Assembly (NCBI RefSeq): GCF_988242995.1
Contig: NZ_OZ547043.1
Direction: 5' to 3' (one strand)
DNA: 64,000 nt
Under the pieces are notes generated by a model. The model had not been told where the DNA came from and made no database searches. It saw only the letters and a program-made list of their open reading frames with translations. Position 1 is the stretch's first letter, and every line of letters starts with the position of its first letter. Of this stretch, positions 22,760 to 35,379 are shown piece after piece. A program made the translations under genes and the position numbers.

Positions 22760-23101
22760 ATGCGAATATTTGTCTACGGCAGTTTACGCCACAAACAAGG
22801 CAACAGTCACTGGATGACCAATGCCCAGTTACTGGGCGATTTCAGTATCGATAACTACCAGTTGTATAGCCTGGGCCACTATCCAGGCGCAGTTCCGGGG
22901 AACGGAACAGTACACGGTGAAGTTTATCGTATTGATAACGCCACGCTGGCCGAACTTGATGCCTTGCGCACCAGGGGCGGTGAATACGCGCGCCAGTTGA
23001 TTCAGACGCCGTACGGGAGTGCATGGATGTACGTTTATCAACGACCCGTCGATGGATTAAAGCTAATTGAAAGCGGCGACTGGTTAGACAGGGATAAGTA
23101 A
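22760..23101 (+). CDS. ytfP: Gamma-glutamylcyclotransferase-family protein YtfP
   Basis: 113-aa ORF MRIFVYGSLRHKQGNSHWM... with the AIG2-like YGSL motif; starts 2 nt after tamB. Confidence 0.92.
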   Translation: MRIFVYGSLRHKQGNSHWMTNAQLLGDFSIDNYQLYSLGHYPGAVPGNGTVHGEVYRIDNATLAELDALRTRGGEYARQLIQTPYGSAWMYVYQRPVDGLKLIESGDWLDRDK

Positions 23102-23112
23102 CCATACGCATA

Positions 23113-23140
23113 CGCCACCTTCGGGTGGCGTTGTTTTTTG
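23113..23140 (+). terminator. Rho-independent terminator after ytfP (end of tamA-tamB-ytfP operon)
   Basis: Stem cgccacc/ggtggcg with loop ttcg followed by TTGTTTTTT. Confidence 0.85.
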
Positions 23141-23280
23141 CGAGACGACTCGCATTCTGTTTTGTAATTCCCTCACCTTTTGCTTTTCTCTCCGAGCCGC
23201 TTTCCATATCTGTTAACGCATAAAAAACTCTGCTGGCGTTCACAAATGCGCAGGGGTAAAACGTTTCCTGTAGTACCGTG

Positions 23281-23300
23281 AGTTATACTTTGTATAACTT
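23281..23300. promoter_or_regulatory. Candidate chpSB operator
   Basis: Inverted repeat AGTTATAC-N3-GTATAACT about 13 bp upstream of the chpS ribosome-binding site. Confidence 0.5.
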
Positions 23301-23312
23301 AAGGAGGTGCAG

Positions 23313-23564
23313 ATGCGTATTACCATAAAAAGATGGGGGAACAGTTCAGGTATGGTCATTCCTAATGTTGTGATGAAAGAACTTAACTTACGGCCGGGGC
23401 AGAGCGTGGAGGCGCAAGTGAGCAACAATCAACTGATTCTGACACCCATCTCCAGGCGCTACTCGCTTGATGAACTGCTGGCACAGTGTGACATGAACGC
23501 CACGGAACTTAGCGAGCAGGATGTCTGGGGTAAATCCACCCCTGCGGGTGACGAAATATGGTAA
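23313..23564 (+). CDS. chpS: Antitoxin ChpS (MazE-like, AbrB/SpoVT fold)
   Basis: 83-aa product MRITIKRWGNSSGMVIPNVVMKELNL... preceded by AGGAGG; overlaps chpB by 7 nt. Confidence 0.93.
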   Translation: MRITIKRWGNSSGMVIPNVVMKELNLRPGQSVEAQVSNNQLILTPISRRYSLDELLAQCDMNATELSEQDVWGKSTPAGDEIW

Positions 23565-23908
23565 AGAAAAGTGAATTTGAACGGGGAGACATTGTGCTGG
23601 TTGGCTTTGATCCAGCAAGCGGCCATGAACAGCAAGGTGCTGGTCGACCTGCGCTTGTGCTCTCCGTTCAAGCCTTTAATCAACTGGGAATGACGCTGGT
23701 GGCCCCCATTACGCAGGGCGGAAATTTTGCCCGTTATGCCGGATTTAGCGTTCCTTTACATTGCGAAGAAGGCGATGTGCACGGCGTGGTGCTGGTGAAT
23801 CAGGTGCGGATGATGGATCTACGCGCCCGGCTGGCAAAGCGTATTGGTCTGGCTGCGGGTGAGGTGGTGGAAGAGGCGTTATTACGTTTGCAGGCGGTGG
23901 TGGAATAA
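23558..23908 (+). CDS. chpB: Toxin ChpB (MazF/PemK-family endoribonuclease)
   Basis: 116-aa ORF MVKKSEFERGDIVLVGFDPASGHEQQG... with the PemK/MazF fold signature. Confidence 0.93.
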   Translation: MVKKSEFERGDIVLVGFDPASGHEQQGAGRPALVLSVQAFNQLGMTLVAPITQGGNFARYAGFSVPLHCEEGDVHGVVLVNQVRMMDLRARLAKRIGLAAGEVVEEALLRLQAVVE

Positions 23909-23986
23909 GGTGTGTTTATTTATCGCGGGCATAAAAAACCCCTACTAACCGAAGCCCGGCGTTCAGGGTTATTACGCTAGAAGAAC

Positions 23987-24517
23987 TTATTTATTCTTTG
24001 CGCGCTCGAAGGAGGCAACGATTTCAGCTTTAGCGGCTTCTGCGTTTTCCCAGCCTTCAACTTTCACCCACTTGCCTTTTTCGAGGTCTTTGTAGTGCTC
24101 GAAGAAGTGAGCGATCTGTGCTTTCAGCAGTTCAGGCAGATCGTTAACGTCTTTAATGTGATCGTATTCTTTGCTCAGCTTGCTGTGCGGAACCGCAACC
24201 AGTTTCGCATCTTCACCGGCTTCGTCGGTCATTTTCAGAACGCCAACAGGACGGCAACGGATCACAGAACCCGGCTGCAGCGGGTACGGAGTCGGGACCA
24301 GTACGTCAACCGGGTCACCGTCCAGAGACAGGGTGTGGTTGATGTAACCGTAGTTGCACGGATAGAACATCGCGGTGGACATGAAGCGGTCAACGAACAG
24401 TGCGCCGCTCTCTTTGTCGATTTCGTATTTGATCGGATCTGCGTTAGCCGGGATCTCAATAACAACGTAGATGTCTTCCGGCAGATCTTTACCCGCAGGG
24501 ACGTTGAGTAAGCTCAT
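23987..24517 (-). CDS. ppa: Inorganic pyrophosphatase
   Basis: 176-aa [48 protein letters not shown]... Confidence 0.97.
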
Positions 24518-34856: not shown

Positions 34857-35099
34857 ATGGCCACACTTAACGTCCGCCTGGATGACAAACTGAAAAATGA
34901 GGCTTATGCGGTGCTGGAAAAATTAAATATCACGCCTACTGAAGCAGTGCGACTGCTGTTTCAGTACGTTGCGGAAAATGGACGAATGCCGGTAAAAACG
35001 CTCACTGTCAGTGATAGTGAAGAAGCCTTGTTACGCACTGTCAGGGAACGACTGGCCAACCCACAAGAGGCCATTAAGGTCCGACTGGATGAACTATGA
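34857..35099 (+). CDS. RelB/DinJ-family antitoxin (ribbon-helix-helix)
   Basis: 80-aa ORF MATLNVRLDDKLKNEAYAVLEKLNITPTEAVRLLFQYVAENGRMP... closely resembling E. coli RelB; GGAGG ribosome-binding site. Confidence 0.88.
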   Translation: MATLNVRLDDKLKNEAYAVLEKLNITPTEAVRLLFQYVAENGRMPVKTLTVSDSEEALLRTVRERLANPQEAIKVRLDEL

Positions 35100-35379
35100 G
35101 CTGGCGTTTGATCCGCGGGCGCTGAAAGAGTGGCAAAAACTGGGCGTGACAGTCCGGGAACAATTTAAAAAAAAGCTTGAGGATGTGCTGAAAAGGCCGC
35201 GCAATCCATCGGCTAAACTGCGGGATTTACCGGACTGCTACAAAATTAAGCTGCGCACACAGGGATATCGCCTGGTTTATCAGGTTAACGATAAAGAGTT
35301 GCTCGTGTTGGTGATAGCTATTGGTAAGAGAGAGAACTCAGCCGTTTATGAAGACGCGACTAAACGGCTGGATGAGTGA
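35089..35379 (+). CDS. RelE/StbE-family mRNA interferase toxin
   Basis: 96-aa product MNYELAFDPRALKEWQKLGVTVREQFKKKLEDVLKRPRNP...LPDCYKIKLRTQGYRLVYQV... closely resembling E. coli RelE; start overlaps the antitoxin stop by 11 nt. Confidence 0.88.
   Translation: MNYELAFDPRALKEWQKLGVTVREQFKKKLEDVLKRPRNPSAKLRDLPDCYKIKLRTQGYRLVYQVNDKELLVLVIAIGKRENSAVYEDATKRLDE

Follow-up and report, generated by a model that had tools for sequence, protein, structure and literature searches.

The chromosomal operon chpSB (chpBIK; b4224–b4225 in Escherichia coli K-12) was reportedly discovered by Masuda et al. in 1993. Having been known since that year, it is annotated automatically wherever an E. coli genome carries it. 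Its closest described relatives are parD (kis-kid) of R1 and pemIK of R100, in which the antitoxin gene precedes the toxin gene as in chpSB, and the E. coli mazEF (chpA) operon, both proteins of which belong to one superfamily with ChpS and ChpB. Plasmid pairs of the 'ChpB family' are found in Yersinia, Burkholderia, Mycetohabitans, Shewanella and Spartinivicinus; these have the same gene order, and mostly the same 7-nt gene overlap, as the E. coli operon.

Hydroxyl-radical footprinting, EMSA and native mass spectrometry have shown that Kis dimers bind the parD site termed region I and that Kid-Kis complexes bind it more tightly; the left half of this region and the mapped −10 overlap (PMC1865072). 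In mazEF, by contrast with the single dyad of chpSB described below, the operator comprises three sites and is described as an 'alternating palindrome' (PMC4803016). Reviews of antitoxin autoregulation describe the operators of mazEF and parD and make no mention of chpB (PMC4803016, PMC3920265), to which other papers refer merely in passing (PMC5120126, PMC3879964, PMC10305079, PMC11869752, PMC4333400). In the accessible literature we found neither an operator nor a promoter or transcription start reported for chpSB, and four genome-wide start-site datasets contained no entry for chpS, chpB or b4224, although the coordinate prefixes used for one of them may have been wrong. Unlike those of mazEF and parD, the chpSB operator seems never to have been characterised. 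The present analysis adds a precise candidate operator site and a motif that extends across the family.

The chpSB genes and their setting

The stretch of DNA analysed here (the window) is 64 kb long and carries the chromosomal chpSB (chpBIK) type II toxin–antitoxin (TA) operon of E. coli, an already known locus whose assignment by sequence is secure. The features of the operon and its surroundings are as follows.

22760–23101: ytfP (GGACT family), the upstream neighbour of chpS
23112–23131, plus strand: intrinsic terminator of ytfP (tamA-tamB-ytfP transcript), an 8-pair hairpin (6 G-C) followed by a T run
23281–23299, no strand: perfect dyad AGTTATAC-TTT-GTATAACT, candidate operator for ChpS or ChpS-ChpB
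23284–23289, plus strand: TATACT, the best −10-like hexamer of a relaxed scan, inside the left dyad arm at −29 from the ATG
23301–23307, plus strand: Shine-Dalgarno sequence AAGGAGG of chpS, read from the sequence, 5 nt before the ATG
23313–23564, plus strand: chpS (chpBI), antitoxin of 83 aa, with ATG at 23313 and TAA at 23562–23564
23558–23564, plus strand: 7-nt chpS/chpB overlap ATGGTAA, containing the chpB start and the chpS stop
23558–23908, plus strand: chpB (chpBK), toxin of 116 aa, downstream of the antitoxin gene
23987–24517, minus strand: ppa, the neighbour beyond chpB

The gene order ytfP-chpS-chpB-ppa is canonical and is identical in the RefSeq annotation. The first-pass annotation of this DNA had named the operon from the letters alone and proposed a comparison with annotated chpS and chpB. 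This comparison gave 100% identity: a 901-nt region is the same in several RefSeq E. coli chromosomes annotated ytfP, chpS, chpB and ppa. K-12 has the same genes in the same place between ytfP and ppa, with the same dyad, Shine-Dalgarno sequence and 7-nt overlap. Over 768 nt the DNA of K-12 MG1655 is 98.3% identical, and it differs from the window only allelically; K-12-type ChpS is 95.2% identical to the window protein, chpB and the spacer contain a few substitutions, and the dyad contains none.

The terminator of ytfP, which is also kept in the Enterobacter ortholog, means that chpSB needs a promoter of its own within 23141–23312. Directly 3′ of it lies a second terminator-like hairpin (23139–23154; TGCGAGACGACTCGCA with a T-rich tail), the stem of which varies among E. 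coli alleles.

ChpS matched the NCBIfam ChpS equivalog NF008463 over residues 1–83 of 83 (192.8 bits, cut-off 101). The mechanical list of open reading frames begins the gene 6 nt earlier, at a GTG; we preferred the 83-aa start because of the end-to-end equivalog match and the RefSeq call. The GGAGG of the Shine-Dalgarno sequence is also present in Enterobacter. Residues 5–49 correspond to Pfam PF04014 MazE_antitoxin (44.5 bits), an N-terminal AbrB/MazE-type DNA-binding domain, and residues 4–83 align to the MazE structures 1mvf and 1ub4. A KRWGNS segment and a terminal tryptophan are common to ChpS and MazE, and the C-terminal tail that ends in this residue is probably the toxin-binding part of the protein.

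ChpB in turn matched the NCBIfam ChpB equivalog NF007320 over residues 1–116 of 116 (226.8 bits, cut-off 129) and Pfam PF02452 PemK_toxin (88.7 bits). Of the solved structures, Kid (1m1f, E = 6e-21) gave the best match, with MazF structures next. ChpB Arg30 and Thr52 align with MazF Arg29 and Thr52 (3nfc), and ChpB His23 aligns with Kid His17; at the positions of Kid Arg73 and Asp75, ChpB has Leu and Asn. We take Arg29 and Thr52 of MazF and His17, Arg73 and Asp75 of Kid to be catalytic residues. By family membership, and with its fold assigned from sequence, ChpB would be an endoribonuclease of the MazF/Kid/PemK family; PMC10305079, citing Zhang et al. 2005, describes ChpBK as an mRNA interferase.

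The first-pass annotation had proposed a MazE-like antitoxin and a MazF-like toxin. Both proteins align to these families, and Pfam, the NCBIfam equivalogs, the Kid, MazF and MazE structures and synteny all agree with this proposal. Scores against the NCBIfam MazE and MazF equivalogs were far under the cut-offs (34.8 against 113 bits and 62.7 against 120 bits, respectively), which identifies the genes as ChpS/ChpB paralogs and not MazE and MazF themselves. The pair is also well diverged from the plasmid system, ChpB being ∼44% identical to PemK (tblastn) and ChpS 36% identical to PemI.

The antitoxin and toxin genes were said to overlap by 7 nt, and ATGGTAA at 23558–23564 is exactly such an overlap, which implies translational coupling of chpS and chpB. 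An identical overlap is present in the annotated homologs of Yersinia, Spartinivicinus, Mycetohabitans and Burkholderia, and the junction sequence, ATGGTAA, can be seen in Enterobacter and Massilia as well.

The inverted repeat upstream of chpS

An inverted repeat had been noticed just upstream of chpS. It is a perfect 8-N3-8 repeat, in which the arms AGTTATAC (23281–23288) and GTATAACT (23292–23299) flank a TTT spacer. In the context CCGTG AGTTATAC TTT GTATAACT T AAGGAGG TGCAG ATG the right arm ends 1 nt short of the Shine-Dalgarno sequence, and the repeat extends imperfectly to 13-nt arms with 85% complementarity that reach into it. The dyad is the sole match in the 64-kb window when two mismatches are tolerated.

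A perfect repeat with arms of at least 8 nt and a spacer of at most 8 nt arose in 102 of 5,000 dinucleotide shuffles of the 172-nt ytfP-chpS spacer, and at most 45 nt from the ATG in 17 of 5,000. The whole window contains 50 such repeats. Taken alone, the chpSB repeat is only moderately improbable, and the weight of the case therefore rests on comparative evidence. Within E. coli the dyad is unchanged, which says little because the whole region is just 2–4% diverged. An imperfect palindrome at 23207–23222 was considered as a further site and rejected; it does not contain the motif, and in K-12 a G-to-A change weakens it further.

The nearest experimentally described counterpart is region I of parD. 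Just upstream of its Shine-Dalgarno sequence pemIK/parD carries GTTATAT-TTAA-ATATAAC, and at the equivalent place chpSB has GTTATAC-TTT-GTATAAC. Both systems thus place a dyad with GTTATA half-sites just upstream of the Shine-Dalgarno sequence, and in chpSB the overlap with a −10 would be provided by the predicted TATACT. The two sites differ in geometry: region I measures 18 bp with a 4-bp centre, whereas the chpSB dyad has 7- to 8-nt arms and a 3-bp centre. In parD there is also a region II 33 bp upstream, which is weaker and contributes cooperative binding, in contrast to the single site of E. coli chpSB; when 23141–23280 was searched with three mismatches tolerated, no second copy of the dyad resembling region II was found. 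By analogy, the chpSB dyad would resemble parD region I without the two-site architecture of parD.

In the syntenic locus of Enterobacter asburiae (ChpB 78% and ChpS 75% identical) 17 of the 19 dyad positions are identical to E. coli; the two that differ are the outermost one and the middle of the spacer. No similarity is recognisable in the 25 nt further upstream. A non-syntenic plasmid homolog from Yersinia enterocolitica, with a ChpS that is 54% identical, has the exact 16-nt word GTTATACTTTGTATAA in common with E. coli, at −37 as against −31; the longest common word in 300 shuffles was 9 nt. A second copy, TATACAATGTATAAT, is present further upstream in this homolog.

A scan of genome contigs yielded at least four loci, and locus diversity was therefore drawn from plasmid tblastn matches. 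These were mostly near-identical Burkholderia glumae plasmids, and one representative per species was used. The resulting set comprised 11 loci, from E. coli, Enterobacter, Yersinia, Shewanella, Spartinivicinus, Mycetohabitans, three Burkholderia species, Massilia and Rheinheimera, of which the four Burkholderiaceae loci are related and not independent. An AC-WWW-G(T/G) dyad core, defined post hoc after inspection of the data, is present in 11/11 loci at −25 to −32 from the antitoxin ATG, so that the plasmid 'ChpB family' pairs share with E. coli a core of the form AC-N3-G at this distance. The summed 8-N3-8 dyad score between −18 and −34 was 66 for the 11 loci, compared with a null of 48.5 ± 2.7 (0 of 2,000 shuffles), and it remained at 51, against 39.8 ± 2.5 (0 of 2,000), when E. 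coli and Enterobacter were left out. In 5 of the 11 loci, all of them plasmid or other relatives and Yersinia among them, a distal second copy of the core, reminiscent of parD region II, lies at −67 to −76. The distal copy of Shewanella and Spartinivicinus overlaps a consensus TTGACA −35.

Outside the core, the half-sites differ by lineage: TTATAC-N3-GTATAA accompanies enterobacterial ChpS, TCTAC-AAT-GGAT is found in Burkholderiales, and TAAC-WWW-GTT in Shewanella, Spartinivicinus and Rheinheimera. Such variation of the outer half-site with antitoxin lineage is as expected if the cognate antitoxin reads the site. In many relatives the core coincides with a TACAAT −10, however, and part of its conservation may therefore reflect the promoter and not an operator.

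Taken further, this overlap would make the dyad no more than an A/T-rich promoter region (TATACT, TATAAC) that is self-complementary by chance, with chpSB regulated elsewhere or not autoregulated at all. The occurrence of perfect 8-nt-arm repeats in about 2% of spacer shuffles, and their number in the window, are in keeping with such a coincidence, as is the near-palindromic nature of −10 hexamers themselves. A promoter needs one hexamer only, yet Enterobacter and Yersinia keep both arms, and the outer GTTA/TAAC bases that are kept fall outside any −10. Moreover, the matching half-site of parD is a footprinted antitoxin site, and the distal copies in the five relatives are located away from the −10 positions of the main promoters. 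We therefore regard a chance repeat within the promoter as distinctly unlikely.

Gene identities and anatomy, as well as the conservation and positioning of the dyad, were observed directly in this analysis. The resemblance to parD region I and the conservation in diverged and non-syntenic relatives support the suggestion, made by the first-pass annotation, of a plausible autoregulatory operator. With roughly three chances in four, the dyad at 23281–23299 would be the operator of the antitoxin, a judgement drawn from sequence comparison and analogy.

Two further islands of the spacer, away from the dyad, are common to E. coli and Enterobacter: CTGCTGG..TTCACA (23230–23244) and CGAGCC.CTTTCC (23191–23204). 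The TTCACA of the former matches the −35 consensus at 5 of 6 positions and is not accompanied by a suitably spaced −10. Within 23240–23283, the E. coli and Enterobacter chromosomal copies show no conservation over the 25 nt that precede the dyad.

Promoter geometry and proposed autoregulation

A strict consensus sigma-70 scan of 23000–24100 returned no promoter on the plus strand. The relaxed scan placed its best −10-like hexamer, TATACT, in the left dyad arm, and upstream of it no −35 was recognisable in either E. coli or Enterobacter. Because of these two negative results, the overlap of the dyad with a −10 element in chpSB is a predicted one. E. coli chpSB also lacks the extended −10 that is present in parD. 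Five Burkholderiales relatives have strong promoters, in which TTGCCA, TTGACG or TGGACA is separated by 17–18 nt from TACAAT. Their −10 elements lie inside the dyad, at −27 to −29 from the ATG, and the E. coli TATACT is found at the matching distance. More generally, near-consensus sigma-70 promoters occur in the plasmid and betaproteobacterial homologs, and the plasmid pairs often have a distal dyad as well; both features are missing from the chromosomal copies of E. coli and Enterobacter.

Since the right arm stops 1 nt short of the Shine-Dalgarno sequence, any transcript bearing this sequence must have its start inside the dyad or further upstream. Binding of a protein to the dyad would consequently be expected to occlude or block RNA polymerase.

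Our reading of the locus as a whole is that of a chpSB operon in which the 19-bp dyad serves as the operator for ChpS or ChpS-ChpB and repression results from covering of the −10; we give this account a probability of about 85%. A ChpS dimer would bind the dyad via its AbrB/MazE-type N-terminal domain, and the ChpS-ChpB complex would probably bind more tightly than ChpS, as Kis-Kid does on parD. Bound ChpS would cover the predicted −10 and the start region and so repress the operon. ChpS would neutralise ChpB, presumably a ribosome-independent endoribonuclease, through its C-terminal tail, and the ATGGTAA overlap would couple the translation of the two proteins. Degradation of ChpS would then lift repression and leave free ChpB to cleave RNA. 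Within this scheme we infer the binding of ChpS to the dyad, the −10 assignment and, by analogy with Kis-Kid on parD, co-repression by the toxin.

The position of the repeat beside the Shine-Dalgarno sequence would also suit a role as RNA, in which a 5′-UTR hairpin adjusts translation or the stability of the mRNA, or makes ACU sites available to ChpB. The extended stem (CCGTGAGTTATAC / GTATAACTTAAGG) does reach the Shine-Dalgarno sequence, the predicted minimum free energy is −14.4 kcal/mol, and with no −35 nearby a more distant transcription start is possible. The shuffle test did not support such a hairpin: the fold is no better than those of shuffled sequences (z = −1.67), 14 of 200 of which equalled it, and the stem is A/U-rich with a loop of 3 nt. 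The imperfect dyads of the relatives, with 5–7 pairs of 8, would make poor hairpins but acceptable protein sites. In those relatives that have clear promoters, and in parD where it is mapped, the −10 lies inside the dyad, which would leave the full repeat untranscribed. Taken together, these points make a function as RNA very improbable, and less probable than the chance repeat considered above.

That the dyad is read mainly by another regulator (plasmid Kis/PemI, MazE or a global factor) and is a site of cross-talk has next to no likelihood: parD region I has the GTTATA half-site in common, and PMC3879964, citing Santos-Sierra 1998, refers to a functional interaction between chpB and parD, but the motif co-varies with antitoxin lineage, the site lies within the cognate promoter at every locus, and cross-binding would supplement binding by ChpS and not substitute for it.

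Comparison of sequences suggests that the control region of chromosomal chpSB is simpler and weaker than that of its plasmid relatives. One tentative explanation, which we consider rather doubtful, is that the E. coli control region is a stripped-down form of a two-site architecture, of which the chromosomal enterobacterial copies have lost the distal site and the −35; the operon would be 'domesticated', being weakly expressed and repressed non-cooperatively, and its single operator would still be readable by plasmid Kis/PemI through the common GTTATA half-site. The two-site architecture would be common to the whole ChpS subfamily and parD and would consist of two dyads with AC-N3-GT cores, the proximal one covering the −10 and the distal one near or upstream of the −35. 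These considerations bear on how chromosomal TA modules stay quiet, and on a possible cross-regulation of chpSB by IncF plasmids that carry pemIK.

Locus polymorphism and a companion TA pair

The full chpSB locus is present in 3,097 of 5,426 complete E. coli genomes. In the rest (about 43%, among them BL21(DE3), CFT073 and 536) only a short relic without annotation is present. Pieces of it correspond to the beginning of the spacer and to chpB codons ∼19–46, with roughly 72–87% identity, and both the dyad and chpS are missing. The upstream breakpoint falls right after GGGGTAAAACG (window position 23264) and is identical in BL21(DE3), CFT073 and A30. So frequent a decay of the locus would fit a stripped-down control region, if that reading is true. 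In CFT073 the gene upstream of the relic is not ytfP but esiB (secretory IgA-binding protein), and an island appears to have been inserted beside the relic site in this lineage.

The window contains a second TA pair, which the first-pass annotation had described as relBE-like.

34857–35099, plus strand: RelB-family antitoxin (PF04221, 58.6 bits)
35089–35379, plus strand: RelE/ParE-superfamily toxin (PF05016, 55.9 bits)

RefSeq names the products RelB/DinJ antitoxin and RelE family toxin, and the two genes overlap by 11 nt (35089–35099). The distance from the chpS start to the end of the relE-like gene is 12.07 kb, of which the gap between the loci accounts for 10.9 kb, bearing out the description of two type II TA loci within 12 kb. 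Plasmid homologs of ChpSB are found beside other TA genes, with a RelE/ParE toxin gene next to the Yersinia pair and vapB next to that of Mycetohabitans, which suggests TA clustering on the replicons that bear them.

The RelB/RelE-type pair is located between cybC and nrdG as a rare accessory insertion; only 390 of 5,426 complete E. coli genomes have it in full. In genomes without the full pair, the match resumes about 5 bp past the nrdG stop codon. The stop codon of the RelE-type toxin gene directly abuts that of the convergent nrdG (35379 / 35380).
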